Shown: positions 5,265 to 62,637, numbered from the stretch's first letter. The stretch: 64,000 bases of DNA from a virus (IMGVR_UViG_3300020411_001722:15653-79652), one strand, 5' to 3'. Program-made: numbers and translations. Notes: generated from the sequence alone by a model not told the origin.

Positions 5265-5900
5265 CTAAGCGGGTGCAATATTCACTGTTAATGTTATTCT
5301 TTCTCCTGTAGGGTTTGATTCATAACCTCGTGTAAGATTAGAGGGAAAAATAACAACATCTCCTTCGCTGTAAGGTATAAAACATTCAGGCATATTAAAG
5401 ATTGATTCTTTACTACAAGGCACCTGTAATACGGGAAAGAAAGATGATACAATATGCCTTCTAAATTTAAGAGGTGAATGTAATTTAGAGTCGTAATTTA
5501 CAAAATAAACTAATGAATAGAGGCAATTACTTGACTCATGTGGTGCATAGATAGCACCCTCATCTGCGAGTTCTAAGTAACACTCACTGACTTGTAATCT
5601 TGATTGATAATTATTAGCATTATTGTTGTGCTTATCTATCAACAACATCAAGGCATCTTTCAATTCGGGGATATCATTTAATACCTCATTATCCTTGCCA
5701 ATTGTTGTTACATTGTGGGAAATCATTCTCCTGGAATGATCTGGAACTAATTCCTTAGTTGTCATCCACTTAAGCAAATCTTGCTTGAATTGTTGATGAT
5801 TAGGAAGTGTAAATGATGAGACTGCTTGTGGAAAAATACCAAATGTTTGGTTCTTTTGTAATACTTCCTTTTCGAGATTGTCGCTTAATTCATTAGACAT
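5265..5900 (-). CDS. 2OG-Fe(II) oxygenase-like protein (TIGR02466-like) with degenerate metal ligands
   Basis: IFPQAV start, LYSLVYFV, EGDVVIFPS, RITLTVN; has HES and TRG where paralogues have HxH and H. Confidence 0.7.
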   Translation of the reverse strand: MSNELSDNLEKEVLQKNQTFGIFPQAVSSFTLPNHQQFKQDLLKWMTTKELVPDHSRRMISHNVTTIGKDNEVLNDIPELKDALMLLIDKHNNNANNYQSRLQVSECYLELADEGAIYAPHESSNCLYSLVYFVNYDSKLHSPLKFRRHIVSSFFPVLQVPCSKESIFNMPECFIPYSEGDVVIFPSNLTRGYESNPTGERITLTVNIAPA

Positions 5901-13856: not shown

Positions 13857-14197
13857 TAGCGTTTTTTGACTGGTGGTAACATGTCATTTCCTGGATGATC
13901 TCCTACAGGTCTCCAGTAATTACGTTTGTTTTGGAAGTGTTGATCCTCAATTTCAAGTTCATCCCAAGCACACTCAGGACATACAACATTAACCTCATTC
14001 CATTTACTTTTAGCATGTTGAGCAACCTCTGGTGGTTTCTCCCAACGGTGAATACATATGGTTATGTACTCGTCACTTATGAAATTAATATAACCTTCTT
14101 CACCTCTCCAGCGTACTCTTCTACCCTTTTCGAGTGATTTAAGAATGTTCCTTAACTCCAACGCAACTGCCTCCGATAATAGAATAGGTATGGTCAT
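13856..14197 (-). CDS. Hypothetical protein
   Basis: 113-aa ORF coupled to both neighbours. Confidence 0.65.
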   Translation of the reverse strand: MTIPILLSEAVALELRNILKSLEKGRRVRWRGEEGYINFISDEYITICIHRWEKPPEVAQHAKSKWNEVNVVCPECAWDELEIEDQHFQNKRNYWRPVGDHPGNDMLPPVKKR

Positions 14198-14733
14198 TAT
14201 GTCAACTTAATGTAACGGTTCTCTAACTCTGGTGGAATCGGATCTGTCTCACCTATGAATATATCCATTGCCATACTGATCCGTATATTATCTGTAGGAT
14301 TCTCAGGTACACCATGCTGCATCTCACTAGGAAATACTGTCATCTCACCTATACAGTTCTTATACTTCACACGCTCATACCACGTGCCTATCTCAGGGTC
14401 ACCACGTAAGAATATATTAGCAGAGGTGTGACCTCTACCATGTGCATGTGGTTTAATACCTTCACCCTTCCTAAATGTATTTGCCCAACACTGAACAGTA
14501 CATTTACCAAAGATTGCAATTAACTTAGGTACAACAATAGATTTAACTGGATCATCCTTTAAGTAGTTATAACACCAATGCCTACCAGATAATGAGTCAG
14601 GTGCAACTTGACCTTTACCTTTAAATACATCATCACCCATTGCTTTAACATCATCCTCAATGTCAAGTATATGGTCAGCAATAATATTACTCTCAATAGA
14701 GGTTAAGAAATCGTAAGAAGTAATAGCAGTCAT
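14197..14733 (-). CDS. 2OG-Fe(II) oxygenase family protein
   Basis: CWAN...PHAH...FPSEMQHGV...RISMAMD. Confidence 0.8.
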   Translation of the reverse strand: MTAITSYDFLTSIESNIIADHILDIEDDVKAMGDDVFKGKGQVAPDSLSGRHWCYNYLKDDPVKSIVVPKLIAIFGKCTVQCWANTFRKGEGIKPHAHGRGHTSANIFLRGDPEIGTWYERVKYKNCIGEMTVFPSEMQHGVPENPTDNIRISMAMDIFIGETDPIPPELENRYIKLT

Positions 14734-15359
14734 AATGTTAGTAAATTAGTAAAGTCTCCATATGAACCATCCAACCAATAATTAAATGCTACAGAGTAAC
14801 GGTGTTCATGTGATGTATTAGGTGCAACTGAATGTACACATGTAGATGGAAATAATGCTATCAATCCGTTTCTAGGTTTTATTGCCCATTCACTAGAATT
14901 TAATAGATTCATCTCATTTAATTTTGGCATGAATACTGGACTAATATATGTTGGGTGATTAGTATCATTATGAAATGATAAATTACCTGAATTCTCATTG
15001 CATTGAATATATATTACCCCACTATAAAGACTATGAGCATGACTGTGACTATGTGCACTATCACCATTTAAATGTCTAGTTGCCCATGAGCATGTATGTC
15101 TCAATGTATATTTTCTATCTACTGATAATTCACCATGTACAAAGAAGTCTAAATGTTTCTCAACTATTGCTCTAAGTTCTGGTATATTTTCTAATACTGT
15201 TTGACTCTCTGTACATGCACCATTATATTGTTTAATATCATCAATATAATCTAAATCTTTAACACGTTGGAGTATTTCTGGTGTGATTATATCTTGTGCA
15301 AGATATAATGGTGTGGAGAACATAGGCATGATCTCCCATTTATCTGAGGGTGGTTTCAT
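14730..15359 (-). CDS. 2OG-Fe(II) oxygenase (TIGR02466-like)
   Basis: FSTP...HSH...SGVIY...FPSTCVHSV...RYSVAFN. Confidence 0.85.
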   Translation of the reverse strand: MKPPSDKWEIMPMFSTPLYLAQDIITPEILQRVKDLDYIDDIKQYNGACTESQTVLENIPELRAIVEKHLDFFVHGELSVDRKYTLRHTCSWATRHLNGDSAHSHSHAHSLYSGVIYIQCNENSGNLSFHNDTNHPTYISPVFMPKLNEMNLLNSSEWAIKPRNGLIALFPSTCVHSVAPNTSHEHRYSVAFNYWLDGSYGDFTNLLTL

Positions 15360-15485
15360 AATATACGTTGTGCTAATGATCTAGCATGTGCATTGTGTTC
15401 AAGTAATTTGTGCATCCATATTCTCTCTTCGAGAGTAACAGTACGTTGCAACTTAATTCTATATAATATTTCACATAACCTCAAC

Positions 15486-16145
15486 CTATATTCCCTGCTT
15501 AACATAATTCCAATCTGGTTCTCGATATGAATCCATTATTAATCGTCTAGTAGGTGCACTAAAGTCACCACACAACATAATATTAAAACCTAGAGAATAT
15601 CTATCCTCAGTATTATTATTAATACCAGTATAATGATCTACATGAGATGGAAAACATACAATCATACCATTCTCAGGTCTAATATTCCATTTACGACTGT
15701 TCTGTATATTATCCTCCCACACTGGTGGATCTAATGTACCTGTATTCCATGTAGCATGATTATATGATGCTTCAAATATAAGATCCCCACTATCTTCTGG
15801 AACATCAAGATATAAACAACCAGTGAACATACTATTTGTATGTCCATGTCTATTAGCACTATGACCTGTAGGATGTTTGTTAACCCAACTACACACAATA
15901 TCCATGTGCATATGATCCTCAATTGCTAAGAATTTATAGATATATTCTGCACAATGTTCAATGCAAAGTTGTTTTAAATCTGGATATTTCTCCAGTATTT
16001 GTTCATCAACTGTACAACTTCCATCTAATTGTTTAGGATAGTCATGATATTCTTCATTCTTGATATCATCAAGAGTTTTTCTTGATATTCTATTTTCATA
16101 TGTTCTAACCGATAATGGTGTAGAAAATAGTGGGAATACTTCCAT
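15486..16145 (-). CDS. 2OG-Fe(II) oxygenase (TIGR02466-like)
   Basis: FSTP...SWVN...HGH...FPSHVDH...RYSLGFN. Confidence 0.85.
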   Translation of the reverse strand: MEVFPLFSTPLSVRTYENRISRKTLDDIKNEEYHDYPKQLDGSCTVDEQILEKYPDLKQLCIEHCAEYIYKFLAIEDHMHMDIVCSWVNKHPTGHSANRHGHTNSMFTGCLYLDVPEDSGDLIFEASYNHATWNTGTLDPPVWEDNIQNSRKWNIRPENGMIVCFPSHVDHYTGINNNTEDRYSLGFNIMLCGDFSAPTRRLIMDSYREPDWNYVKQGI

Positions 16146-16387
16146 TATGTTTCTGGATGTCTGTGTACATTCTTAAGTGGTGAATCATACCGTAGATGCA
16201 GCACTTCACCTATTTCCATGATATAATCCTTTTCTTCCTGTGTTAGTTCACCATGCTTCTGGTGTAAATCCTTAATCAGTAATAATACTGCTTTCTTAAG
16301 CAATCCCTTAGCACCCTTTGTAATATATGGACTATGAAGTCCTAAAGGATAAGTTGTCATAGTGTAACTCCCAGTGTTTTGACCCAT
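16145..16387 (-). CDS. Hypothetical protein
   Basis: 80-aa ORF within the operon. Confidence 0.55.
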   Translation of the reverse strand: MGQNTGSYTMTTYPLGLHSPYITKGAKGLLKKAVLLLIKDLHQKHGELTQEEKDYIMEIGEVLHLRYDSPLKNVHRHPET

Positions 16388-16411
16388 ATTATATCTATAA
16401 GAACCCCCCAG

Positions 16412-17125
16412 TCAAATGTTTATGTTGGTAAGAGTATATTCCCTACGATCTGACTGTGGCATATCTAAACCATGCCACAACGGAATACTCATACTCAAAC
16501 GAGCATTTTTGGACGGATGGGCACAGTGATAACTGCGGGATGGTATGTATATCATATCACCTGGTGTCAAGACCACATCCATTAATGGTTCACCTAAGTA
16601 TGATTCATCACCATTGAATATAAATGAACCATGTTTAATCAGTGTGCTACACCTCTCATTATATACTTTCCAGTGTGTCTCACCTATGAGTTGCATAATA
16701 AAATTTGATGGTTGATCCCAGTGTATATTAAATGACTTAGATCCCTTACCAGTAGCACCATACAAATGTATATCACAATGTATATCAAATGTTTTCTCTA
16801 TTTTATCTAACAACTCATCACAATGTCTATTGTGGTGACCATACATTCCTATAACAAATGTATCATTATTATTAACATGTTTAAATATCTCATCTTTCCT
16901 AGGATGTTGAGCATTTAACCATGTTTCTGTTGCTTGTGCAAGATGAACCTTATTACTCTTCTTATCTAATATTTCAACATGATAGTTCCAAGGATTGTTG
17001 AGACAATCCTGTACATCCTTCCATGTAGCATAGTCCTCTGGTGTGTCGCATACCTTCTCAAATACTAAAGGTACATCACCAACATAATAATGTTCAGGAT
17101 TTAGAAAGGTAGTTGAAATGGACAT
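16412..17125 (-). CDS. JmjC/cupin-4 family oxygenase
   Basis: SFNIHWD...FIMQLIGETHWKVY...LTPGDMIYIPSRSYHCA...RLSMS. Confidence 0.85.
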   Translation of the reverse strand: MSISTTFLNPEHYYVGDVPLVFEKVCDTPEDYATWKDVQDCLNNPWNYHVEILDKKSNKVHLAQATETWLNAQHPRKDEIFKHVNNNDTFVIGMYGHHNRHCDELLDKIEKTFDIHCDIHLYGATGKGSKSFNIHWDQPSNFIMQLIGETHWKVYNERCSTLIKHGSFIFNGDESYLGEPLMDVVLTPGDMIYIPSRSYHCAHPSKNARLSMSIPLWHGLDMPQSDRREYTLTNINI

Positions 17126-17862
17126 TTACCCTCCTCATCTTTATTCAATCTGTTCATAATAATACTCCATGATTTAAATGGTTGCCAGTCCTTAAACTCT
17201 CTGTCTTGCCACAATCTTCTAACCATGTCCTTACCTTCAGGTATAGATCTCTCTAACCTGAAATCACTGGTCTTATGTGGCATGTCATCAAAGAATCGAA
17301 CAGTACATAATGGTTCACCACGTCTAATAAGTATATCCTTATCAAAAGTCTTAATGACCATACCTATAGTCATAGGTCTTAACCAATTTGATATTGGAAA
17401 ATGACCTGACACTACTTCAAAATTATGTTGTGATGGGTGTCCAGTAAACTCTACCCATACCTTCTTATGCTTAGTCCAGAATAAATGTAAGTATTGTATC
17501 TCTACCTCTGGATACTCTCCATCCCACCATCCATTTCTAACTTGAAATAATCTATTAAACTGATCCTGACCATTACATTTATCAGAACCAATCATCTTAT
17601 TCGTACTATCAATACGAAAATGTATATCAATAGGTGTATACAATGTATATCTATTCTTCATCCAACTCTTATTTGCTGGACAATGATAGTGGTCATGTGT
17701 ATTGTCTAGATCATCCCTATGTGGTGTAGGTTCAATAATATAATCATCAGGAAATGTAGGACGTTGAAAATCCTCCCAACCTGAGATACCCAACCTACCT
17801 TGTGTACTATCAGGGATAGTTGATGTCCAATTAATTACTTTACTCATGTGCGTTACCATCAA
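17101..17862 (-). CDS. Hypothetical protein with CP motif (related to 19611-20330)
   Basis: HCPA...YTPIDI...IRRGEPLCTVRF, C-terminal KCPF. Confidence 0.65.
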   Translation of the reverse strand: MMVTHMSKVINWTSTIPDSTQGRLGISGWEDFQRPTFPDDYIIEPTPHRDDLDNTHDHYHCPANKSWMKNRYTLYTPIDIHFRIDSTNKMIGSDKCNGQDQFNRLFQVRNGWWDGEYPEVEIQYLHLFWTKHKKVWVEFTGHPSQHNFEVVSGHFPISNWLRPMTIGMVIKTFDKDILIRRGEPLCTVRFFDDMPHKTSDFRLERSIPEGKDMVRRLWQDREFKDWQPFKSWSIIMNRLNKDEEGKCPFQLPF

Positions 17863-18553
17863 TCCACATAGTAGTTGCCTTTGGATCTAGACCACGTTTA
17901 ACTATAAGATTAAATGCTAATGATATACGTTCCTCATCAGTATTATTTGTTGATACATCATGTGGAACCCAACCAGGAAATAATATAAGTTTATTTACCA
18001 TTGGTGGATATGTATAAGAACCCCAAGTACATGGTGTATCACCTTTACTACCAGTAGAATAAGATCCCATACTTTTATATAAATGTGTCTCTAACAGATT
18101 ACGTCTCACACTTAAACTACCACAGTCACCCTCTGGTACTTGTATATAAGTAGCACCACCAAATACAACACCAGGATGTGTATGAACTGATATCTTATCG
18201 CCAGGTGGTGTGAATACAAACCAGAAATTATCCATCTCAACATGTGAGTTGAATGGTGCCATATCATAATAACATTCCTTTGCTTTAGTCTCAACCTGAT
18301 CGATCATATCACCTACAGGGCAAGAATGACCACGATAATCATCTGCATTAAGATATTTTGATTCGTAACTTCCACCATCCATTTGAGTGAGTGCATCAAC
18401 AATACGTCTATCACCTCTCACCTCACGTTGTGACTGTGCAAAGTCAAGTAGACCTTCAATCTGAAGATCTATATCACCATGCCACACTGGTGTTGGAAAT
18501 AAGAATTCACACTCCATAATGTTTAGCAACCTCTCCAAAATATGCTGACTCAT
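17840..18553 (-). CDS. 2OG-Fe(II) oxygenase (TIGR02466-like)
   Basis: LFPTPVW...HTHPG...FPGWVPHDV...RISLAFN; true start probably MECEF. Confidence 0.85.
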   Translation of the reverse strand: MSQHILERLLNIMECEFLFPTPVWHGDIDLQIEGLLDFAQSQREVRGDRRIVDALTQMDGGSYESKYLNADDYRGHSCPVGDMIDQVETKAKECYYDMAPFNSHVEMDNFWFVFTPPGDKISVHTHPGVVFGGATYIQVPEGDCGSLSVRRNLLETHLYKSMGSYSTGSKGDTPCTWGSYTYPPMVNKLILFPGWVPHDVSTNNTDEERISLAFNLIVKRGLDPKATTMWIDGNAHE

Positions 18554-19184
18554 TCTCTATTTGAGGAGTCAAATTAAATGATACTGATATACGATCTTCT
18601 ACATTATGACCTGCTTCTACACCATGTGGTAACCATGCAGGGAAGAACATTAAACGACCAGCGACAGGTGGATATGCCATCTGACTCCAACACCAAGGTG
18701 TATCCTCACCACCTTCACATGATGACTGCATGACACCAGCAGATGCAAAGAGAAAAGCAGATGTATGATCCCTATGGAATATTAAATCACCACTATCAGG
18801 TGGTGTTTTAACATAATATACACCAGACAATACAGAACCAGGATGTGTATGAGTTACATTATAATCTCCACTATTAGAGTTATTAATGTTCATCCATATA
18901 TTTGCTAACCTGACGTTACAACCCCAAGGTTTAAACCTAGCATGTATATCTTCACCTAATGCTTTAATTCTTCTTGCTAAATCACCTAACGCATGGTCAG
19001 AATCCAGCATGTCCTCACCATCAAAATCAGGTGATTGAAAACCACCTACATTTGATCTGGACATGCCCTTACCTTTATCTCTTACACTATAACAAAATGA
19101 GGCAATTGCGTCATTATCAACATCTAACTCTGTCCACCATATAGGTGTAGGAAAGAGTAATTCCTCCATCAAGTTGTCTGCCAT
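18507..19184 (-). CDS. 2OG-Fe(II) oxygenase (TIGR02466-like)
   Basis: LFPTPIW...SNVGGFQS...HTHPGSVLSGVYY...FPAWLPHGV...RISVSFN. Confidence 0.9.
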   Translation of the reverse strand: MADNLMEELLFPTPIWWTELDVDNDAIASFCYSVRDKGKGMSRSNVGGFQSPDFDGEDMLDSDHALGDLARRIKALGEDIHARFKPWGCNVRLANIWMNINNSNSGDYNVTHTHPGSVLSGVYYVKTPPDSGDLIFHRDHTSAFLFASAGVMQSSCEGGEDTPWCWSQMAYPPVAGRLMFFPAWLPHGVEAGHNVEDRISVSFNLTPQIENESAYFGEVAKHYGV

Positions 19185-19657
19185 TACACACCAGTTTTAA
19201 CATCTGGTGCATTTGGATCAGGTACCCAATCTGCTAGATCTTCAAAACCTGCTTTACCTTTAACTCTAACCTTTGGTGATGGTTTCTTAGGTATCTCTAC
19301 ATATGTCCTTGCTTCTTCACCCTTAACCTGTGTTAGAAACAAGTTCAATGCATCAAGACCACCTTCAAGTTTAACCACTTCATCTCTTAATGATTGTACT
19401 TCTCTAAGGTCAAATGTATTATTACCTTGCTGTGGTTTATTACATATTGCATCCACCTGACTCTTAAGAACCAAATACCTATCATATTTAATAGCGTGTT
19501 GTGCTTTAAGATTTTCAAACAACTGATCAAATGTAATTAGATCAGTTTCCTCTCTTGGTGCCAGATCAGGATCATTTTTGAGTTCTAGATCTTCAATCTT
19601 GGTTACTTCTTCAGTCATAATAGTTCTTAATAATTTTTGAGTTGTTTCTAACGACAC
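19184..19657 (-). CDS. Hypothetical coiled-coil protein
   Basis: ORF overlapping both neighbours. Confidence 0.6.
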   Translation of the reverse strand: MSLETTQKLLRTIMTEEVTKIEDLELKNDPDLAPREETDLITFDQLFENLKAQHAIKYDRYLVLKSQVDAICNKPQQGNNTFDLREVQSLRDEVVKLEGGLDALNLFLTQVKGEEARTYVEIPKKPSPKVRVKGKAGFEDLADWVPDPNAPDVKTGV

Positions 19658-20330
19658 TGGGTGTGTCAGGTTTGAATTTAGTATCCATACTATAATTTAT
19701 AGCATTTTCAAACCTCATATCTTTAGCAGTTGCATCTTCTACAACATAGTCCCAAGATCTTATTGAATCTCTAAGAATAGGTGTGAGTTGTAAGAGTGGT
19801 GTTCCCGCCTCAATTAAGGTTTCTCCCTCCTTAATATGCCAGTATAGTTGTGCATTTAATTGTGGAACCTTAGATGGATCTAATAGACCTGTTGCTGCGG
19901 TAAACCGTTTCTCTCCATTATATAGCACTGGAGACTGTATGAATACTATGTCTTTACGTGCTGACACCCTCCAAGTAGTACCAATCTTAATTACAGAATT
20001 AATACTATTAGGTGGTGCTGAAGATTTTGCTTGCTTACCATCATGTACACCAATAAATCCTGAATCACTATCAAGTAGAGTTGGTGCTTCCCAATCTACT
20101 GACTCCATATCACCATTGGTCTTGATTATTAAATCACATGGCATAGGTAATATAAAACCTAGATTACCATATAATTTAATACCTGGGCATTTACTGGCAT
20201 GTTTCTGCTTAGTAGCATGTTCACATGCACCAATACTCCTCTTTAACTTAGTTGCAGGGATTATTGGGTGGCAATCCTTGACACCAGGGCAAGTTGACCA
20301 AAATCTAATTGGTGGTTTCTTCTTGAACAT
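19611..20330 (-). CDS. Hypothetical protein with CP motif (possibly degenerate dUTPase-like fold)
   Basis: KCPGI...GFILPMPCDL...IEAGTPLLQL. Confidence 0.65.
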   Translation of the reverse strand: MFKKKPPIRFWSTCPGVKDCHPIIPATKLKRSIGACEHATKQKHASKCPGIKLYGNLGFILPMPCDLIIKTNGDMESVDWEAPTLLDSDSGFIGVHDGKQAKSSAPPNSINSVIKIGTTWRVSARKDIVFIQSPVLYNGEKRFTAATGLLDPSKVPQLNAQLYWHIKEGETLIEAGTPLLQLTPILRDSIRSWDYVVEDATAKDMRFENAINYSMDTKFKPDTPSVVRNNSKIIKNYYD

Positions 20331-21873
20331 TGTATATGTTATCCAATAAGTATTGCCAAGACGATTTACATCCGTTGATGTATTCTAACGCTTCTGCCTG
20401 TGCTTTGTCAACTACCTTATCCCACTCCTCAACTGGTGCTTCACCATATTTAAAAGTCTTATGCTTCATTCCTATAGATCTAAGAGGTGAATAGTTATTA
20501 CCAGCAAGTACATATAAATCTCCTGCAAATTGTTCAGGAAAATCATAAGTCTTATACTTACATACACTTAGATCTCTAAAAGGATTATCCTCTGGATGTG
20601 GCATATTTGTATGATCTCGATGATAATCAATATCCTCAGTCACATGCCTCCAATACTTTGTATCTCTACGCATTGAAAATGCATAATGCCATGCAATAAA
20701 GTCAGAGAAACCTTCCATCTCTCTACTTGCTGCTTCATTAAATAAATCCTTTTCAATACTACCTATAACACCCTCACGATTCTCTAGAGTACCAATCAAT
20801 CTGATTATATTCTCATGTGTTGTTAATAATCCTGTTGATTCTAATGGTTCTAAGAAACCATATGATAACCCAATCGCTACAACATTCTTATACCATGCTG
20901 ACTCATGCTTACCATTTTTAATATCAATAGTCTTTAACTCAGGTGGCATATAATGTGGATATACTTCCTCTATATGCTCACGAAATTCTTTCTCTGCACC
21001 CTCTTGATCCTGATATAAATCAGACCAAACATATCCTGCACCAGTTCTATTCCATAAAGGAACACTCCATGCCCAACCATTACCTAAAGCATATCCATTA
21101 GTAAAGTTCTTTACTTCACCTGTATCATCACCCCAATGAGGTATTCTACACACTGTTGCTTTATTATTAGGAAGAATATCTTTATATGAATGATGCTTCA
21201 CACACATATATTCTTCAAGTAACAGTGATTTAAATCCTGTACAATCAATAAACAAATCTGCTGTGAAATCACCAGCAGATGTCTTTAAGGTTTCAATACC
21301 TCTATCAGACTCAGTAAAATCTAATACATCTGCTGATACATGTTTAATATTCTTACATACATTATTCTTTAACCACTGACCAAACTTAATTGAATCCATA
21401 TGATAAGAATAATCCTTACCAAAGGAACCCCACCTACCCTCACTATCTAATTTATTCTCTTCCATTAGCAAGGTATTACCATTTACTAACCTTGCAAAGG
21501 TATTAGGATTACCATACTTTTCTGGATATGCATCTCTCAAATACCAAAAAGTTTGTAATCCTGCTGGTAATGATTCATCAGATGGTTCAACAAATGGATA
21601 ATCCCAATATGTACCATCATTCTTATAGAAATTAGTAAATCTTATTCCTACCTTATAGGTAGCATCACATTCTTGCATCCACTCCTTATCTTCTATTCCA
21701 AGAAGTCGCATGAAAAAATTAATATGCCCCAAAGTAGATTCCCCGACTCCTATGGTAGGAACGTTCGGGGATTCTATTAGAGTTACATTGTAGTCAGGGA
21801 GCATCCTTTCAAATGCTGCTGCGGTCATCCATCCAGAGGATCCACCGCCCACGATAATAACATTACGAATCAT
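20305..21873 (-). CDS. Flavin-dependent halogenase (tryptophan halogenase family)
   Basis: GGGSSGW FAD motif, IGVGEST, ATYK catalytic Lys, FIDCTGF, GWAWSVP (WxWxIP), FLEPLESTG. Confidence 0.92.
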   Translation of the reverse strand: MIRNVIIVGGGSSGWMTAAAFERMLPDYNVTLIESPNVPTIGVGESTLGHINFFMRLLGIEDKEWMQECDATYKVGIRFTNFYKNDGTYWDYPFVEPSDESLPAGLQTFWYLRDAYPEKYGNPNTFARLVNGNTLLMEENKLDSEGRWGSFGKDYSYHMDSIKFGQWLKNNVCKNIKHVSADVLDFTESDRGIETLKTSAGDFTADLFIDCTGFKSLLLEEYMCVKHHSYKDILPNNKATVCRIPHWGDDTGEVKNFTNGYALGNGWAWSVPLWNRTGAGYVWSDLYQDQEGAEKEFREHIEEVYPHYMPPELKTIDIKNGKHESAWYKNVVAIGLSYGFLEPLESTGLLTTHENIIRLIGTLENREGVIGSIEKDLFNEAASREMEGFSDFIAWHYAFSMRRDTKYWRHVTEDIDYHRDHTNMPHPEDNPFRDLSVCKYKTYDFPEQFAGDLYVLAGNNYSPLRSIGMKHKTFKYGEAPVEEWDKVVDKAQAEALEYINGCKSSWQYLLDNIYNVQEETTN

Positions 21874-21880
21874 AAATCAA

Positions 21881-22462
21881 TTAGTTGTAGTCTTCGTCTT
21901 TCTCCTCTCTTGGTAATACTGGTTCAGTTTCAGCATTGTCCCATTTACATCCATCACCTTCAACCATATATTTTACATAGGTTTGGTACTGTTTGTCAAT
22001 CTTTAATGAAGGATACTCTGCTTCTGCCTCTTCACGAGTCCACCATGCAGGTATTAAATCATTGTGTTCCCAAGGTTGGTATGGATCCCAAGGTTTTCCA
22101 GTTTCAGGATCGATCTGGATGTCACCATACTTCTCTTTTGCTTCTATCTTTACAGATTCAATTGCTCTAAAGAATTTACCTTTCTTAGCATCCTCACCAA
22201 ATAGTCCATCCTTTATATCATCATAGATACGTGCAAGTTGTGAACCCTGATCACCATATCCTACAACTCTTGCTTGTAATGGATCTACGTGGTTATGATT
22301 TGGAATCCACTCATTGAATTCCATTTTCCAGTCGAGTGTTACCTCGTCAGGTGCGTCTACCCAATGGAGTTTAGCACCAGGACCAGTATATACATCAAAC
22401 TCATCTCCAGGTTCGACGATATCTGTTATATGTCCAGATTGTTGAATTAATGCTCTTTTCAT
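21881..22462 (-). CDS. Hypothetical protein, possible fibre assembly chaperone
   Basis: Directly follows a fibre gene; YGDQGSQLARIYDDI resembles motifs of small tail-associated proteins. Confidence 0.55.
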   Translation of the reverse strand: MKRALIQQSGHITDIVEPGDEFDVYTGPGAKLHWVDAPDEVTLDWKMEFNEWIPNHNHVDPLQARVVGYGDQGSQLARIYDDIKDGLFGEDAKKGKFFRAIESVKIEAKEKYGDIQIDPETGKPWDPYQPWEHNDLIPAWWTREEAEAEYPSLKIDKQYQTYVKYMVEGDGCKWDNAETEPVLPREEKDEDYN

Positions 22463-22463
22463 T

Positions 22464-23267
22464 TTAGTTAAAGTTGTAGACTACGATGTAACCTTGACGA
22501 CCATTTCCACCTCGCTCACTGTTACGTCCTGATGAACCACCAGCACCCCAAGCAGCGTGTGATCTATAGTTGTGTGCCCACTGTTGTTGGAAGTGTGATG
22601 TTGGTGCAGCACCACCCCAGAAGGAAGTACCACCAAATCCCATACCTGGTTGGGAGTTCTTGTGACCATCACCTGATCCACCGTAAACCTGTACAGCACC
22701 CTGATTAGGTGATCCACCTAATGAACCTGAGTGTTGTCTTTGTCTGTTAGCACCCTGTCCACCACCAGATGAACAATAGTTACCGAATGATGAGGTACCA
22801 CCGTTACCACCTTGAGATGAATATCCAACACCATTACCTTCACCACCAACAGTAACGTTGATTGAGTTTATATTCGATACATCAATAATCTGTTCAGTAT
22901 GTGCACCAGCACCAGCAGTTTCACCATAACCTGATGAACCACCGCCACCACCTGTACATTTGACCCAAATCCTCTTAACTCCAGAAGGTTTGTTCCATGT
23001 AGTGTTGTTATTATATGTGTTAATAGAAATCGGTCCACCACCACCTTGAACAGTTCCCCATGACATGTTAGTGCCGTCTGTGGTCAAATACTTACCTGCT
23101 TGACCAGACTGTGATGGGATAATTTGTCCAGATGAACCACTGATAGTACCATTGATTTGCAGGTTTGTAACCGTCAATGTACCATTCGCAGTTATACTTC
23201 CACTAGAAAAGGAAAATCCACCTTGTCCAGCGAGGTCTTTAACCGATGCAACTTTTAGGGTACTCAT
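22464..23267 (-). CDS. Glycine-rich tail fibre/adhesin-like protein
   Basis: MSTLKV start, PSQSGQAGKYLTTDG fibre linker, TWNKPSGVKRIWVKCTGGGGG glycine-rich domain. Confidence 0.75.
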   Translation of the reverse strand: MSTLKVASVKDLAGQGGFSFSSGSITANGTLTVTNLQINGTISGSSGQIIPSQSGQAGKYLTTDGTNMSWGTVQGGGGPISINTYNNNTTWNKPSGVKRIWVKCTGGGGGSSGYGETAGAGAHTEQIIDVSNINSINVTVGGEGNGVGYSSQGGNGGTSSFGNYCSSGGGQGANRQRQHSGSLGGSPNQGAVQVYGGSGDGHKNSQPGMGFGGTSFWGGAAPTSHFQQQWAHNYRSHAAWGAGGSSGRNSERGGNGRQGYIVVYNFN

Positions 23268-23293
23268 TCTTTACTTTGAACCTCTTACGTTTT

Positions 23294-23301
23294 TATTTAT
23301 A
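23294..23301 (-). promoter_or_regulatory. T4-type late promoter
   Basis: TATAAATA, intergenic, upstream of the fibre gene. Confidence 0.7.
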
Positions 23302-23315
23302 ATAATTCTTTGGTA

Positions 23316-25025
23316 TTAATGGACCCAAAGCGTCCAGTCATTTGTATAACGATACTCACCGTAGGCATCAGTGGTACCCCAAATTATCCAAGGATCATTA
23401 GTGGTTTCACTACCAAATCCATTTGGTCCATAGTTTGCAGAGTGTGAGTTATTACCACTACCTAGGTTGCCAGGATCAATAACATGCATGTCTTGACTCC
23501 AACTACCACTGTTACCAGTCCAGATCACTGCCCAGTATCCAGATCCATTATTCTCATAAGGACTGTTGTTAATAATACCACTGAAGTTCTGGTTAAAGTT
23601 ACCAAAGTCAGCAGTGTGCCAACCACCTGCCTGATATGAAGCATTATACTTAACTCTAGTTAGTCTTGGAAGACCAATTCTAATTGTAGATAATGAGTTA
23701 CCACCTTGATGGTTTTGCTCTCTACCTATTCTATGGAGTCCTTGACTAATAGTAGAATTAGATGTGCTATCAGTGGAATTGTTATGGAAAGCAGGTCTTA
23801 TACTCTCTGGTGAACCATATACTGTATATGGAATATTATTATAGTTTTGACCAAAGAATGAATCATCAAACTTTGCCCATCCTGCATGTCCAGAACCAAA
23901 TCTATCACTAGCATCATACTCCATTTCTAAAGCAGTGCCATGAACTTTCAACCATACTGTACTACCAGTATGACCCTCTGATGCTGCTTGTCTAGCAGAA
24001 TCGGCAGGATTACTTTGGGATCCACCTTTTCTACTACCTCCACCTCCACCAGTCTGGAGATTTTTTGGAACAATAACTAAGAGACCACCGCCTCCACGAC
24101 CACCTGAGTTTCCACCTCTACCCACATTTGTATTAGGGAAATATGGAGATGATTGACCAGCAGCGTTACCTCCTCGACTTCCTCGTGCCCAACTAGCACT
24201 ACCGACACGACCTATATATCCTGATCCACCGCCACCTGCACCTGGACCTGAGGAACCGCCACCGCCTCCTCCGTAGTATCCACCACCGCCACCTGCTCCT
24301 TGACTTCCTCCAGTACCACCTCTCATGGCACCAGAGCAGCAAGCGTTAGCACCAGCGTTACCGTTGGATCCACCACCAGACTGGGATCCACCACCACCGC
24401 CACGTGAGCAGCAGTTTGATGCTTGGTCTCCTGATGAACCACCGCCACCACCGCCATATGCAGTGTCACCTGATCCACCACCACCGCCTCCAGCGATGAT
24501 AATTGCTTGTCCTGTTGAAATACTAGTTGAAAGGAATATTCCTGTTAGTCCTCCTCCACCACCACCATCATTATTACTATTACTATTGGTACCAGAGTTA
24601 CCAGCACGAGTATTATATCCGTTATATTGATTATTGTCTGAAGGAGACTGGTTACCTCCCTCACCTGCTCCACCTATTATGACTCCGTATGCATTACCTG
24701 CATTAAATGTATATGTTCCTGAAGCAAATCCACCACCTCCACCAGTCTGACTACTAGTTCTCTTAGTTCCACCACCACCAGCACCCCATGCATATATGGT
24801 AGTTTCAGTTTCCTCACTGAATGTGATAGTTGTGTTATACCATCCAGATCCACCATTATTTTCTGCGTTCCATGAAATTGGTGAATCATTTGCTAAGGTA
24901 TACTCATTATTAATTTGACCACTTATAGTTAATTTATAAGTACGTCCACCACCAGCAGCACCACCACCTGCTGCTTTCACACCAGATGACATGGGTCTAT
25001 ATGCTCCAGAAAATCCAAATTTCAT
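23316..25025 (-). CDS. Glycine-rich virion fibre/receptor-binding protein
   Basis: AWGAGGGG, IIAGGGGGG and GGGGGYYGGGGG polyglycine motifs, GSQSNPADSA linker, then a C-terminal globular domain. Confidence 0.75.
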   Translation of the reverse strand: MKFGFSGAYRPMSSGVKAAGGGAAGGGRTYKLTISGQINNEYTLANDSPISWNAENNGGSGWYNTTITFSEETETTIYAWGAGGGGTKRTSSQTGGGGGFASGTYTFNAGNAYGVIIGGAGEGGNQSPSDNNQYNGYNTRAGNSGTNSNSNNDGGGGGGLTGIFLSTSISTGQAIIIAGGGGGGSGDTAYGGGGGGSSGDQASNCCSRGGGGGSQSGGGSNGNAGANACCSGAMRGGTGGSQGAGGGGGYYGGGGGGSSGPGAGGGGSGYIGRVGSASWARGSRGGNAAGQSSPYFPNTNVGRGGNSGGRGGGGLLVIVPKNLQTGGGGGSRKGGSQSNPADSARQAASEGHTGSTVWLKVHGTALEMEYDASDRFGSGHAGWAKFDDSFFGQNYNNIPYTVYGSPESIRPAFHNNSTDSTSNSTISQGLHRIGREQNHQGGNSLSTIRIGLPRLTRVKYNASYQAGGWHTADFGNFNQNFSGIINNSPYENNGSGYWAVIWTGNSGSWSQDMHVIDPGNLGSGNNSHSANYGPNGFGSETTNDPWIIWGTTDAYGEYRYTNDWTLWVH

Positions 25026-25920: not shown

Positions 25921-28900
25921 TTAGATAACAAGTTCACGTATTTGTACCTTATCACCTGTAGCAGGTGGAGTACCAACACTGAAATCAACAGCATTACCAG
26001 TAACAGTGTAATCAACGCCAGGTACCTGACAAACACCATTTAAGAATACTAATAATGAATATGCTGTATGTCCAGCAGTTATAGCAAATGAGGATGTAGA
26101 ACCATCACCATTGTACATAACACCATTATTACTGTTAGCAATACCAGTTGCCAATGAATAGTTATCCACACAACCATACTTACCAGTAACATCTAGATCA
26201 CCAGTAATGGTTGTATTACCATTTACTCTCAATCTATTTGATGCATCTGCTGATTCACCTAGACCGAAGTGAGTAGTACCACCGAATCTAGTAGTCTTAA
26301 TATCCTCAGAATCAGAAACACCAAACTTATACCAGATACCTTGATCGTATATCCAACCTAATGGTGTACCTGGAGTCCAGTCAATGTTATAACAAATATC
26401 ACCATTATTAAATGCAGTACCCGCTTGAACGTCAGGTAATCCAGTTCCCAATTCTTCAGCAAGGAAGAACTGTTTCAATACAGTACCATCATCATTAGAA
26501 AATGTCTGCTTAATAGTTTGGATATTCTCCTGTGATGTTATCTTCTTCTGGAAGGTAACAGGACCAGAGAATACTGATTCCAACTGGTTAGCAGCACCAC
26601 CAATAACAGTTAATTTATCAGTAAGAACGATTTCACTAAACGTCTCGATCTCACCTTCTTCACCCACAACATTTAATTGTGCAATATCTTCTGAAGTTAT
26701 CTGACCTGTAACTGGGTTAATAACTTGGTTACCAATGAATAGTTCACCATCACTGTTAACACCAGTATAGTATGCAACACCTGCTTCTTCTTTTAACTGC
26801 TGAGATAATCTAACCTCTGCCTGAGTTAAAACTTGTACCTGTGTTGATGGGAACGCTGTACTGTAGTTACCTGGACCAAAACCAAGATATTCAAATGTGT
26901 GACCTGATGCTCTTAGAATTGAATATCTTCTCAATTCAGTTAACAATGGTGATACTGATAGGTCAGCATTTAATTTCAATGCTATCTTTCTTTCTTCCTC
27001 ATCACCTAAACCTGCAACAACACTAACATTATTCAATGTGTTAGCAGACGTACTATATCCTAAGTTATTTTCAGTTTCAAGTAAGAAGAACTGTGCTGCT
27101 TCCCTAGTAATTGAAAGTAATGTATTTTCTGCTGGAGTTGGTGATGCACCATCTGTAGTTTTAACAAGACCAATGATCTGATTGTCTGCAACAGATACAG
27201 CAGCAGCAGGATCAGCAGCAGGATTATCTCTATCAAATGCAGGATATACATCCGACGTTTGTTGAGAGAACGCCATATCATTGAAGTTATCAGTAGATGG
27301 TGTTACTGATGCTGATAGTATAGTTAGATAATATACACCGTCAGTTACACCTCTTTCAAATGGTATATGTGTCTCAACTTCAAAGATATAATATACCTTA
27401 GAATATTGTGGTGAGTTAGTCTCGGATGAACGTGGTTGTAATACGAAACCAGTAATAGGTTCACGAGGTACAGGGAATGCATCCTTATCAAGAACATATC
27501 TAAATCTGTATGTTCTATCCTTCAAGTTACGTGGGTCAGGTAGACGACGTACAAATGTTGGTGGAGTAAATGCTAAGTTTTGATATAAACTATTTGCTAA
27601 TAGTGTTGTATAGATCGTATTAGCAGAAGAATCAACAGAAATATACCAGTTATTCTGTGCTGGATCCCATTTAATAGGTGAGTTCTCATCACCTGGTTTT
27701 TGACCTGTTACAGTAGGACCAGCAGGGTTAATATTTGCGTAGTGAGTAGTAGGATTATCTGCACCTGATGCTTTCAGTAATACATATACCTTATCTGGTT
27801 CAGATACACTATCACGACGTGCACCTATAGTATATCCCTGTACTTTACTTGGTGGTTTCGCTGTTTCAGACGTATAACCATAGAGATATAGTTTAGATGA
27901 GTCAGCAGCAGATCTGATCTTTGCAATATCTAATGATACCCAGTTAATAGGTACCTCTGCTACGTCAGCTAATGACTTAGGTGGAATTATATGTGTTACG
28001 GAACCTGCTTTGTCTTTAGTAAATGCAGAATCCCTGAAACCTTTGGATCGTAAGGATGTGTTACCGAAGTTTGAGTTAGAGTTCGTGATAGAGAGGTCAC
28101 CACCACTGTCTGCGAAGAAGTGGTCTCCGAATCCAACAGCGAACACAGATACGACTTGTATGAATGCTCCATTTGATGCCTTAATATGTACACTTCGCCA
28201 ACCCTTTCGGTGTTTTGCTAGACCATTAATATGCGAACCTGATCCTTGTGCTTGTGGTTCATATGCACTTGTAGATTGGTTATACAATACAAATGCTCTG
28301 TCATCCTTTTGTAGTGAGATACCAGTGAACTGTGCCACAACCATTGATTTAAAACCAGTTGCCTTAGCACCATCTGCATGCATACCACATATACCCCATA
28401 CTGATCTTAGTGAACAGTTAAAGACATATGGTGATGCAGAGTCAACAGTATCAATCTCAACCTTAACTAGGATATTAGAACCAAGAGCATTACCTGATGG
28501 TTCAGATGCCATCTGATAGGTAAACTGGTTACCTTGAGCAGACGTAATTAAGAATGATCCATTATATAAGAGTTGGTCTTGTTCTGTAGGACCAGTAACA
28601 CCAGAGATGTTAACTGCAACACCCACAGAGAAACCGTGGTTCTTGGGGTTACCAAGTTCATCCACAGTAAATGCTGTTGCGGTCTGACCATTTCTAACAA
28701 TCTGAGATATAGCAAATTCGTCAGAAATTGGACCAACAATTCTATTTTCCTCAACCCTTGCCTGTATCTGATCCTGTGCAACGAGACCAGAAGAATCAGG
28801 AATAGTAGCATAACCTTTAGAGATCTTCTGATAGTATAAATCTAGATCATCTGTAGTTGCAAAGGTGAAGCAAGTTATCTTGTGGTGGGAATAGTTAGGA

Positions 28901-29493
28901 GCGATAGTTGCAATATCGTCACCACGATAATAAACGCCATTATTATCTCCATCAAAAAATGACATCTGCCAGAAGTAGGCAGCACCAGTTAATTTAAATA
29001 TACCTGACGCTAATGGTTCATTGGCAGCAGTAATACCTAAACTACCAGAAGTAGTAGGATATGGTACATACTTAGGAACAATCTTTGTACGTCTTAAGTC
29101 TGATCCAACAACAGAACAACCTCTAGGTACAATAACTCCACCTTCAGCAGAATTAAACTTATAAAGTATATTTGATGAAGATGTGATATCGAAGTTTGTA
29201 TTAGCATCAAAAGGTTGAATCTGATTATAATCAGTTACACCTGGACGATTATCAATTACATATTCAGATGGATAGAGATAGATTGAAAATGCATCAAATT
29301 CATCATTACTTAATCCAACTCTATATGAAAATCGTGCTACTTCTAGGAAAGCACGTTGCAACGTCTTAAACGGACGTAACGCAGAGTTACCTCTATTATC
29401 GTATGCATCCGATGCATCAAAGTCGTCGGGGTTAACGTATATAATACGACCAGTCCTCGACGTTATGATATTTTTAAGACGTGTGAGTGCCAT
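25921..29493 (-). CDS. Large virion structural protein (tail/baseplate associated)
   Basis: N-terminal YVNPDDFDASD...RPFKTLQRA motif of cyanophage structural proteins; C-terminal LLVFLNGVCQVPGVDYTV domain. Confidence 0.8.
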   Translation of the reverse strand: MALTRLKNIITSRTGRIIYVNPDDFDASDAYDNRGNSALRPFKTLQRAFLEVARFSYRVGLSNDEFDAFSIYLYPSEYVIDNRPGVTDYNQIQPFDANTNFDITSSSNILYKFNSAEGGVIVPRGCSVVGSDLRRTKIVPKYVPYPTTSGSLGITAANEPLASGIFKLTGAAYFWQMSFFDGDNNGVYYRGDDIATIAPNYSHHKITCFTFATTDDLDLYYQKISKGYATIPDSSGLVAQDQIQARVEENRIVGPISDEFAISQIVRNGQTATAFTVDELGNPKNHGFSVGVAVNISGVTGPTEQDQLLYNGSFLITSAQGNQFTYQMASEPSGNALGSNILVKVEIDTVDSASPYVFNCSLRSVWGICGMHADGAKATGFKSMVVAQFTGISLQKDDRAFVLYNQSTSAYEPQAQGSGSHINGLAKHRKGWRSVHIKASNGAFIQVVSVFAVGFGDHFFADSGGDLSITNSNSNFGNTSLRSKGFRDSAFTKDKAGSVTHIIPPKSLADVAEVPINWVSLDIAKIRSAADSSKLYLYGYTSETAKPPSKVQGYTIGARRDSVSEPDKVYVLLKASGADNPTTHYANINPAGPTVTGQKPGDENSPIKWDPAQNNWYISVDSSANTIYTTLLANSLYQNLAFTPPTFVRRLPDPRNLKDRTYRFRYVLDKDAFPVPREPITGFVLQPRSSETNSPQYSKVYYIFEVETHIPFERGVTDGVYYLTILSASVTPSTDNFNDMAFSQQTSDVYPAFDRDNPAADPAAAVSVADNQIIGLVKTTDGASPTPAENTLLSITREAAQFFLLETENNLGYSTSANTLNNVSVVAGLGDEEERKIALKLNADLSVSPLLTELRRYSILRASGHTFEYLGFGPGNYSTAFPSTQVQVLTQAEVRLSQQLKEEAGVAYYTGVNSDGELFIGNQVINPVTGQITSEDIAQLNVVGEEGEIETFSEIVLTDKLTVIGGAANQLESVFSGPVTFQKKITSQENIQTIKQTFSNDDGTVLKQFFLAEELGTGLPDVQAGTAFNNGDICYNIDWTPGTPLGWIYDQGIWYKFGVSDSEDIKTTRFGGTTHFGLGESADASNRLRVNGNTTITGDLDVTGKYGCVDNYSLATGIANSNNGVMYNGDGSTSSFAITAGHTAYSLLVFLNGVCQVPGVDYTVTGNAVDFSVGTPPATGDKVQIRELVI

Positions 29494-29526
29494 TAATCTG
29501 TTCCTTCAGAGGTATTTATTGTGGAG

Positions 29527-62124: not shown

Positions 62125-62637
62125 TTATTTGAACCAGTTGAAATTAATCACAACTCTTGCTTTGTCATCAGTACATGAGGTACCACGATGCTTAAGACGA
62201 GAAGGAAATATAATCATCTTATTATGAATACTCTGGCACTTCTCACCACTCTCAAACTCTGTATATCCATCACATGTATTAACATAGTACACACCAGTGT
62301 ACATATTATCTAGAATAGAACCAAGAAAATCTGTATGAAAATCATGTTGCTCTATCTCTGGTGTGTTTGGTATTAGATTTGCTTTGACTCTCATCATCGC
62401 ATAACAATTCAACTTCTCTTTAAATAGATTCATTATATCAACACTAAAAGGACTAACGTTACCCTTATTAACGTCGTATAACATGTGAGTAAATTGAAAT
62501 TGTCTTAGATTATTTTCTTCCTTCTCCTCTATATGTGCTATGTGTCTGTGGAAGAACCAATTAATATCACTACCTAAAAATACTTCACGGAGTGCTAGAG
62601 CAGCATCCTTGTCTAAAAAATTAGGAATTGATTCCAT
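62125..62637 (-). CDS. 2OG-Fe(II) oxygenase
   Basis: RVKANL...FHTD...TGVYYVNTCDGYTEF...HRGTSCT...RVVINFNWF. Confidence 0.82.
   Translation of the reverse strand: MESIPNFLDKDAALALREVFLGSDINWFFHRHIAHIEEKEENNLRQFQFTHMLYDVNKGNVSPFSVDIMNLFKEKLNCYAMMRVKANLIPNTPEIEQHDFHTDFLGSILDNMYTGVYYVNTCDGYTEFESGEKCQSIHNKMIIFPSRLKHRGTSCTDDKARVVINFNWFK

Follow-up and report, generated by a model that had tools for sequence, protein, structure and literature searches.

Marine cyanophages carry many 2-oxoglutarate (2OG)-dependent oxygenases that have gone without explanation for some two decades, and viral flavin-dependent halogenases such as VirX1 serve as biocatalysts, but their natural substrate, like their role during infection, is not known. 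On which molecules would such enzymes act when their genes stand directly behind the genes for the tail-fibre tip? This arrangement is found in a 64,000-nucleotide stretch of DNA (the window), which is part of the 79.6-kb IMG/VR viral contig IMGVR_UViG_3300020411_001722 (estimated to be ~44% complete). From its sequence, the source is an uncultured marine T4-like cyanomyovirus, and the region considered here is the fibre-tip end of its late structural region. An earlier annotation of the window (the original prediction) had proposed that a halogenase and several oxygenases encoded at 14197–25025 modify the adjacent fibre proteins. Here we compared this locus with its relatives and found a constant gene core that joins a glycine-rich, adhesin-like gene, a small helper-like gene and the halogenase gene, which makes a fibre-tip protein a tentative candidate for the substrate. 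The enzyme array itself has already been described; what is new is the genomic support linking it to fibre-tip genes.

Organization of the gene run

Calling of open reading frames (ORFs) together with Pfam, PHROG and PDB sequence searches resolved 14197–25025 into a single tightly packed run on the minus strand, and all long ORFs between 29493 and 11510 have this orientation (Table 1). In the direction of transcription, the order is a 1190-aa fibre gene, a gp35-like gene, a 569-aa glycine-rich gene, Gly267 (glycine-rich), p193 (helper-like), the halogenase, CP239 (a CP-motif protein), a 157-aa ORF, two PF13759 oxygenases, CP253 (a second CP-motif protein), a JmjC_2 oxygenase, an 80-aa ORF, and three further PF13759 oxygenases. 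Beyond the last PF13759 gene follow a 113-aa ORF, an N6/N4 DNA methylase, and a helicase. Genes in the run overlap or sit 1–48 nt apart, and two gaps stand out, one of 24 nt (16388–16411) and one of 126 nt (15360–15485). The genes listed in the original prediction (two glycine-rich genes, one of them just upstream of the promoter-proximal Gly267 gene, a helper-like gene, a halogenase, two CP-motif genes, five HxH...H oxygenases, and a JmjC oxygenase) were all present on the minus strand at their predicted places. The operon had also been called fused; its members do adjoin in one gene run, but no gene fusion was found.

In annotated gene order, the run is syntenic with gp33–gp62 of Syn9 and with S-WAM1 and P-RSM6, and the window joins the known Syn9-type cluster as a new member; it does not represent a new kind. 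DNA nearly identical to the region is present in marine metagenomes from nine studies. A megablast search of the region against isolate phages returned only a 55-nt match, and the collection thus holds no close cultured relative.

Gly267 combines a glycine-rich domain match with a distal location in the fibre module and is a putative gp38-type adhesin. It matches phrog_863 ("tail fiber assembly") at 5.8e-58 and occupies the genome position of Syn9 gp38. Its homologues in P-RSM6, S-WAM1, and S-SZBM1 are 71% identical, and Y149, S160, F161, and H202 are invariant in the family. p193 always lies between the glycine-rich genes and the halogenase, and its N-terminal ~115 aa are conserved. The p193 model has a predicted local distance difference test (pLDDT) score of 88. 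Its top fold matches are a fibre chain of cyanophage Pam3 (Z 5.4, root-mean-square deviation 13) and chain B of 5yvq, the tail-fibre/chaperone complex of phage Mu (Z 3.5, 49 residues). Both matches are fibre-related but weak, and p193 belongs to no Pfam family. The predicted chaperone role is plausible, with p193 possibly a fibre chaperone or a fibre-attached protein.

Linkage of the halogenase with fibre-tip genes

We fetched 80 halogenase loci from IMG/VR with a halogenase alignment as the query, which was required because a single-protein query retrieved one locus only, and labelled their ORFs with the window proteins. A glycine-rich ORF was defined as one of at least 150 aa with at least 20% Gly, and a locus as well flanked when at least 5 kb was available on both sides (n = 32). 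Within 5 kb of the halogenase, a glycine-rich ORF was found in 27/32 well-flanked loci and a dioxygenase in 25/32; by estimate, about one-fifth of the positions in the 64-kb window lie within this distance of a glycine-rich ORF. The reverse search gave a halogenase in all 64 Gly267-family loci (64/64) with enough downstream sequence. Across loci the core order is constant: one to four Gly267 genes, p193, one or two halogenases, CP239 or the 157-aa ORF, and then the oxygenases.

This core has been kept through several rearrangements. Six loci (L013, L022, L027, and others) hold three glycine-rich genes, a p193-like gene, and a halogenase without any dioxygenase. In two loci (L064 and L069), the enzyme block is convergent to the glycine-rich genes. 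In S-RIM44 (KX349294.1, 101.8–112.8 kb), the whole unit stands before neck genes and not before methylase and helicase genes, a position unlike that in the window. The S-RIM44 unit lies behind a ~3500-aa structural protein and comprises three glycine-rich genes, a helper gene, two halogenases, and oxygenase-sized ORFs.

Genome-wide co-occurrence was checked on four to five whole records in addition to the loci. Among isolates, clear Gly267-family matches occurred only where a VirX1-clade halogenase was present, with one weak, partial exception (metaG-MbCM1). A tblastn search of isolates with the type-B glycine-rich protein (from L013) gave no match. In S-B64 (MH107246.1), the halogenase gene (61.8–63.4 kb) and a Gly267-type gene (148.4–149.2 kb) have both been kept although they are unlinked.

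Late-promoter-like motifs

TATAAATA, a T4-type late-promoter-like motif, stands in the gap upstream of the Gly267 gene and heads the packed run, as had been predicted. Its core, ATAAATA, is depleted in the window (14 sites observed against 24.7 expected), with 13 of them on the minus strand (3212, 23294, 29513, 33081, 37223, 57357, 62122, and others). Many of them lie directly upstream of minus-strand gene starts, including the site at 29513–29519, which precedes the 1190-aa fibre gene, and no ATAAATA occurs between 23294 and 3212. This distribution is as expected for T4-type late promoters, and the motif appears usable to map late units in this phage.

Across the loci, the 100 nt upstream of the gene contained ATAAATA for 64% of the first and 41% of the later Gly267 copies and for 47% of the p193 copies. 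The share was 6% for the halogenase, 1% for CP239, and 2% for random 100-nt windows. Because the motif is common before Gly267 and p193 and rare before the halogenase and CP239, the simplest reading is that late promoters of the fibre-tip genes would also serve the halogenase, through transcriptional read-through. The predicted lack of a terminator agrees with the finding that no strong intergenic terminator was present in the run; terminator-like sites were weak and lay within coding sequence.

The one metatranscriptome in which the phage was present (run X20) contains only short contigs of it. One of them spans the Gly267/p193 junction, which is weak evidence of co-transcription because DNA may have been carried over. 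The X20 contigs cover the fibre and glycine-rich genes and hardly touch the enzyme genes; we did not use them as evidence for differential expression, since contigs cannot rank expression and DNA carry-over is again possible.

The 24-nt gap that separates the JmjC gene from the 80-aa ORF holds a near-consensus sigma-70-like site at 16388–16415 (minus strand; TTGACT-16 nt-TATAAT), the first hexamer of which overlaps the JmjC stop codon. This site is a possible internal early or middle promoter, which would split the enzyme run.

Conservation of the enzymes

The best solved relative of the halogenase is VirX1 (6QGM; 1.5e-115 over residues 2–515, full length). The GxGxxG FAD motif (G9-G11-G14), K74, and E342-P343-L344 are invariant among 42 homologues, and W267, W269, and P272 (WxWxVP) and E345 (EPLES) are invariant or nearly so; in its WxWxIP motif, the window enzyme has Val in place of Ile. 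Its motifs thus indicate a catalytically intact enzyme, as originally claimed. VirX1 shares the FAD motif, the catalytic Lys, WxWxI/VP, and EPLES. Identity is only ~40%, however, and neither the halide preference nor the substrate of the window enzyme can be read from its sequence. VirX1 of cyanophage Syn10 is active, prefers halides in the order I > Br > Cl, and has a large open active site; its natural substrate is not known (PMC8407142).

A Pfam scan of the ORFs of 11.5–25.9 kb (E ≤ 0.1) revealed no scaffold-making enzyme (non-ribosomal peptide synthetase, ATP-grasp, or polyketide synthase), transporter, or resistance gene in or near the array. No flavin reductase (PF01613) gene was found in the 79.6-kb record, ~44% of the estimated genome, and a host reductase would therefore have to supply FADH2. 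The original prediction had pointed out both absences, of a scaffold synthase and of a flavin reductase.

The five PF13759 (2OG-FeII_Oxy_5) proteins score 44–79 bits (cut-off 27) and are mutually 19–32% identical. None of the five (0/5) has the canonical HxD/E...H iron triad; all have HxH...H, followed ~10 residues past the distal His by the RxS 2OG motif (R198 and S200, unchanged in all five). HxH...H...RxS is also present in 2RG4 and 3BVC, the uncharacterised relatives in the PDB. This pattern is the norm for PF13759 and represents a three-His variant of the superfamily triad in which the 2OG site is kept. The JmjC protein has an HxD...H triad as read from its sequence (H135-x-D137, distal His at 200/203), and its nearest solved relatives are NO66 and MINA (1e-8), both protein hydroxylases. 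By sequence, it belongs to the MINA/NO66/YcfD clade, in agreement with the prediction that an enzyme family acting on protein residues would be represented.

Candidate substrates of the enzymes

These data can be assembled into the following model. Transcripts started at the late-type promoters that precede the fibre-tip genes would extend into the enzyme genes, and the enzymes would therefore be produced together with the fibre-tip proteins, late in infection. The host would supply FADH2, halide, Fe(II), and 2OG. The enzymes would add halogens to aromatic residues and hydroxyl groups to side chains of a protein that the phage makes from this cassette, most likely the glycine-rich adhesin or the helper. 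Modification would take place before the fibre is assembled or during assembly and would alter the chemistry of the fibre tip. Because the array has no scaffold-making partner, the link has persisted through several rearrangements, and late promoters are apparently shared, we regard a fibre-tip protein of the cassette as the best single candidate substrate, with a probability of roughly 40%; the step from enzyme to substrate is drawn from gene context. Also in its favour are the large open active site of VirX1, the protein hydroxylases among the solved JmjC relatives, and the oxygenase gene inside the fibre array of P-RSM6-type loci. The fuller claim, that the phage would both halogenate and hydroxylate its own receptor-binding fibre-tip protein (or the helper) with dedicated late enzymes, we hold to be possible but less likely than not. 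A complex prediction for the halogenase with Gly267 and p193 gave a score of 0.00; it was run without controls and counts neither for nor against binding.

Several observations weigh against modification of the fibre tip. The S-B64 halogenase (38% identical) lies among recombination genes, ~86 kb in the record from the only Gly267-type gene of that phage. In S-MbCM6, which has no Gly267 relative, a 33%-identical halogenase is surrounded by photosynthesis and other host-like genes. Two distant halogenases, one from the Pelagibacter phage HTVC008M and one from the Campylobacter phage CP21, lie among other structural or replication genes. Conversely, metaG-MbCM1 has a distant gp38-type glycine-rich gene and no halogenase anywhere. 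On the halogenase tree, the fibre-adjacent state needs ~11 changes while the halogenase is retained. Most fibre-linked loci fall within one large halogenase clade, so that inherited gene order explains part of the signal. The copy numbers of adhesin and halogenase genes are not correlated (rho 0.05). Sigma-70-like sites at 21999–21970, 20411–20382, and 16415–16388 could drive separate early or middle expression; since such matches were not enriched (79 against 73 in shuffles), none of them was called a promoter. The co-occurrence check put forward with the original prediction is therefore answered in part: proximity (27/32), the reverse search, and gene order agree with it, while the unlinked genes of S-B64, the halogenase-free metaG-MbCM1, and the ~11 changes do not. 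The same holds for the proposed fibre-modifying system as a whole, for which the compact run behind a late motif and the conserved Gly-rich/p193/halogenase adjacency speak, and against which stand halogenases retained away from fibre genes and a distant adhesin without one.

The published reading is that such enzymes serially modify a free amino acid, a short peptide, or a host metabolite into a halogenated and hydroxylated product, in which case the place behind the fibre genes would give late expression only. Iyer, Abhiman, de Souza, and Aravind (2010; PMC2938197) described in Syn9 an array of ten dioxygenases, including the MINA-clade gp49, with halogenase homologues and a dUTPase-fold Cys protein, and proposed secondary-metabolite synthesis by analogy with multi-dioxygenase antibiotic pathways; a 2021 survey of jumbo phages repeats the proposal for a related cluster. 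The five PF13759 paralogues are old and divergent, which fits a series of consecutive reactions on a single scaffold. In addition, VirX1 halogenates many small aromatic compounds in vitro (PMC8407142), which also counts against fibre modification, and the halogenases of S-B64, S-MbCM6, HTVC008M, and CP21 have no neighbouring fibre-tip genes. However, the Pfam scan found no scaffold-forming enzyme, transporter, or resistance gene in the array or its surroundings, and no halogenated metabolite from infected picocyanobacteria appears in the literature searched. Small-molecule tailoring also leaves unexplained why the Gly267 family and p193 travel with the halogenase in every locus of the reverse search, even where dioxygenases are missing. 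We consider it a possible account, at low odds.

A further explanation is that the enzymes share no substrate, the region behind the fibre genes being a hot spot of gene accretion and the adjacency an inherited gene order. The JmjC protein might then hydroxylate host ribosomal or other proteins, as do its solved relatives, which are ribosomal-protein hydroxylases, and the remaining enzymes might draw down 2OG or take part in repair, in line with the 2OG/nitrogen-signalling or repair roles suggested by Sullivan et al. (2010) for cyanophage 2OG oxygenases. Genes for 2OG oxygenases are common and scattered in cyanophages (76/153 genomes), with further weak copies in the window, their number and kind vary between loci, and one halogenase clade holds most of the linked loci. 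Accretion does not readily explain why the Gly267/p193/halogenase trio has stayed intact through relocation, inversion, and loss of oxygenases, why clear Gly267-family members are confined to genomes that also have a VirX1-clade halogenase (as S-B64 does), or why the catalytic residues of every enzyme are conserved, and we judge it unlikely.

The label "RiPP-like" (ribosomally synthesised and post-translationally modified peptide) of the original prediction was dropped because the defining parts are absent: the Pfam scan found no leader/core peptide, recognition element, or protease, and the proposed substrates are full-length structural proteins.

If fibre-tip tailoring were confirmed, it would be the first case of a halogenated virion protein, would identify the natural substrate of viral halogenases of the VirX1 type, and would reveal a new means by which abundant ocean viruses tune host recognition; the prediction of host range for ocean cyanophages from sequence alone would then be incomplete. 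If the fibre tips are not tailored, the small-molecule reading gains weight. The comparative data narrow the search for substrates to the gp38-type and helper proteins of cultured phages, and S-B64, with both genes present and far apart, offers a natural test case for fibre modification.

Comparison with known systems

The closest parallel is the gp38–gp54 region of Syn9 and Syn10, in which fibre genes, the glycine-rich gp38/gp39, a gp40-like helper, one or more halogenases, a gp43-like gene, PF13759-type oxygenases, a gp49-like MINA-clade JmjC gene, and a DNA methylase follow in the same order. Syn9 differs in having two halogenases and ten oxygenases, against one and six in the window, and the window has a second CP protein and a different glycine-rich protein in the variable slot. 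Iyer et al. (2010; PMC2938197) did not connect the phage array to fibre genes. In the RefSeq record of Syn9 (NC_008296.2), gp46 and gp51–gp54, which lie within the dioxygenase array, carry the names "minor coat protein", "DNA endonuclease V", and "ferrochelatase"; these are probably automatic mislabels, as Iyer et al. counted these ORFs as dioxygenases.

The T-even gp38-type adhesins (phrog_863, PF21722, PF12810) resemble Gly267 in having a glycine-rich repeat domain, a length of ~260 aa, a place at the distal end of the fibre module, and a small helper gene next to them. In contrast, the family represented in the window consists of one to four tandem paralogues and is tied to a halogenase; no modification enzyme is known for gp38 of T-even coliphages.

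In bacterial operons of the beta-hydroxylase or phytanoyl-CoA-hydroxylase type, dioxygenase genes likewise adjoin genes for glycine-rich or fibre-like proteins, and collagen-like and tail-collar proteins have been predicted as the dioxygenase substrates (Iyer et al. 2010; PMC2938197). Those operons are cellular, contain other oxygenase families and sulfotransferases instead of halogenases, and have substrates that are predicted only. For phages, the literature searched held nothing relevant on hydroxylation or halogenation of fibres, either reported or proposed.

Members of the flavin-halogenase superfamily can halogenate Trp in a ribosomally made polypeptide, as the RiPP halogenases MibH and SrpI illustrate. 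Such systems have leader/core precursors with dedicated recognition and processing parts, none of which were found in the window array by Pfam.

Other genes and features of the region

Table 1 Genes and motif of the fibre module and enzyme array in the window, in the direction of transcription.
Feature	Coordinates	Strand	Evidence
Long tail-fibre protein, 1190 aa, heads the fibre module	25921..29493	-	"Tail fiber protein" homologues at the same position in P-RSM6, S-WAM1, Syn9
Syn9 gp35-like fibre-module protein, 288 aa	25032..25898	-	phrog_29506, 4.2e-72; same slot in Syn9, S-WAM1, P-RSM6
Glycine-rich protein, 569 aa, variable fibre-module slot	23316..25025	-	PF12810 ALK_LTK_GRD, 27.4 bits (cut-off 24.5)
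TATAAATA, T4-type late-promoter-like motif	23294..23301	-	In the 48-nt gap upstream of the Gly267 gene
Gly267, glycine-rich gp38-type fibre-tip adhesin-like protein, 267 aa	22464..23267	-	PF21722 Gly_rich_2, 26.9 bits (cut-off 24.3)
p193, helper-like protein, 193 aa	21881..22462	-	phrog_1787; no Pfam family
VirX1-type flavin-dependent halogenase, 522 aa	20305..21873	-	PF04820 Trp_halogenase, 3.4e-95, 320 bits (cut-off 21)
CP239, dUTPase-like fold (predicted), 239 aa	19611..20330	-	phrog_7084, 1.2e-40; same slot as Syn9 gp43
Conserved ORF, 157 aa	19184..19657	-	No Pfam/PHROG family; homologues in the same slot in many loci
PF13759 oxygenase, 225 aa	18507..19184	-	3.8e-22; HxH...H...RxS
PF13759 oxygenase, 237 aa	17840..18553	-	5.7e-17; HxH...H...RxS
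CP253, second CP-motif protein, 253 aa	17101..17862	-	phrog_17480, 4.5e-22; weak phrog_7084 match
JmjC oxygenase, 237 aa	16412..17125	-	PF08007 JmjC_2, 4.5e-19, 68.7 bits (cut-off 22); Syn9 gp49 slot
Conserved small ORF, 80 aa	16145..16387	-	Homologues in the same slot in several loci
PF13759 oxygenase, 219 aa	15486..16145	-	1.2e-17; HxH...H...RxS
PF13759 oxygenase, 209 aa	14730..15359	-	1.7e-20; HxH...H...RxS
Short PF13759 oxygenase, 178 aa	14197..14733	-	2.4e-11; phrog_81; metal and 2OG motifs retained

In the CP239 family, Cys48 is invariant and Pro49 nearly so, the family-invariant residues being C48, H96, K115, W120, and P178. The CP239 model (pLDDT 90.4) points to a dUTPase-like fold: the listed top PDB matches are nearly all dUTPases (E ~1e-4, template-modelling score 0.5–0.69 on the target). 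Since identity to dUTPases is 10–16% and no Pfam dUTPase match was obtained at E ≤ 0.1, CP239 was not filed as a dUTPase. CP253 is a distant paralogue of CP239 by sequence profile: hhalign against the CP239 family gave 94% (E 1.3e-7), while BLASTP of CP239 against CP253 was not significant (E 0.8). The two CP-motif proteins are thus related, as predicted, at the profile level. The 157-aa ORF, a conserved gene in its own right, does not encode a CP protein.

The 569-aa glycine-rich protein has an N-terminal polyglycine-type domain and a conserved C-terminal domain (phrog_4831, 5.6e-107, residues 329–569), and no similarity to the same-slot proteins of Syn9 and P-RSM6 was detected.

The 126-nt gap is the only long one in the run. 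A 42-codon frame with a TTG start (15356–15484, minus strand) can fill it, ending in a stop codon that overlaps the start codon (ATG) of the following oxygenase gene. Outside the array, two further weak PF13759-like matches were found below the cut-off, at 5265–5900 (minus strand, 20.3 bits) and 62125–62637 (minus strand, 15.9 bits); oxygenase-like genes are therefore also scattered elsewhere in this phage. In P-RSM6-type loci (L001, L026, and L046), a gene for a 247-aa PF13759-type oxygenase lies inside the fibre array, between a 417–419-aa structural-type protein and the first Gly267 gene.

Some metagenomic contigs (DNA runs X6 and X13) join position 29494 to position 24221 of the window with 31 other letters between them. 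These joins suggest either that related genotypes lack the genes for the 1190-aa fibre and the gp35-like protein, or that contigs of relatives (90% likeness) are chimeric.

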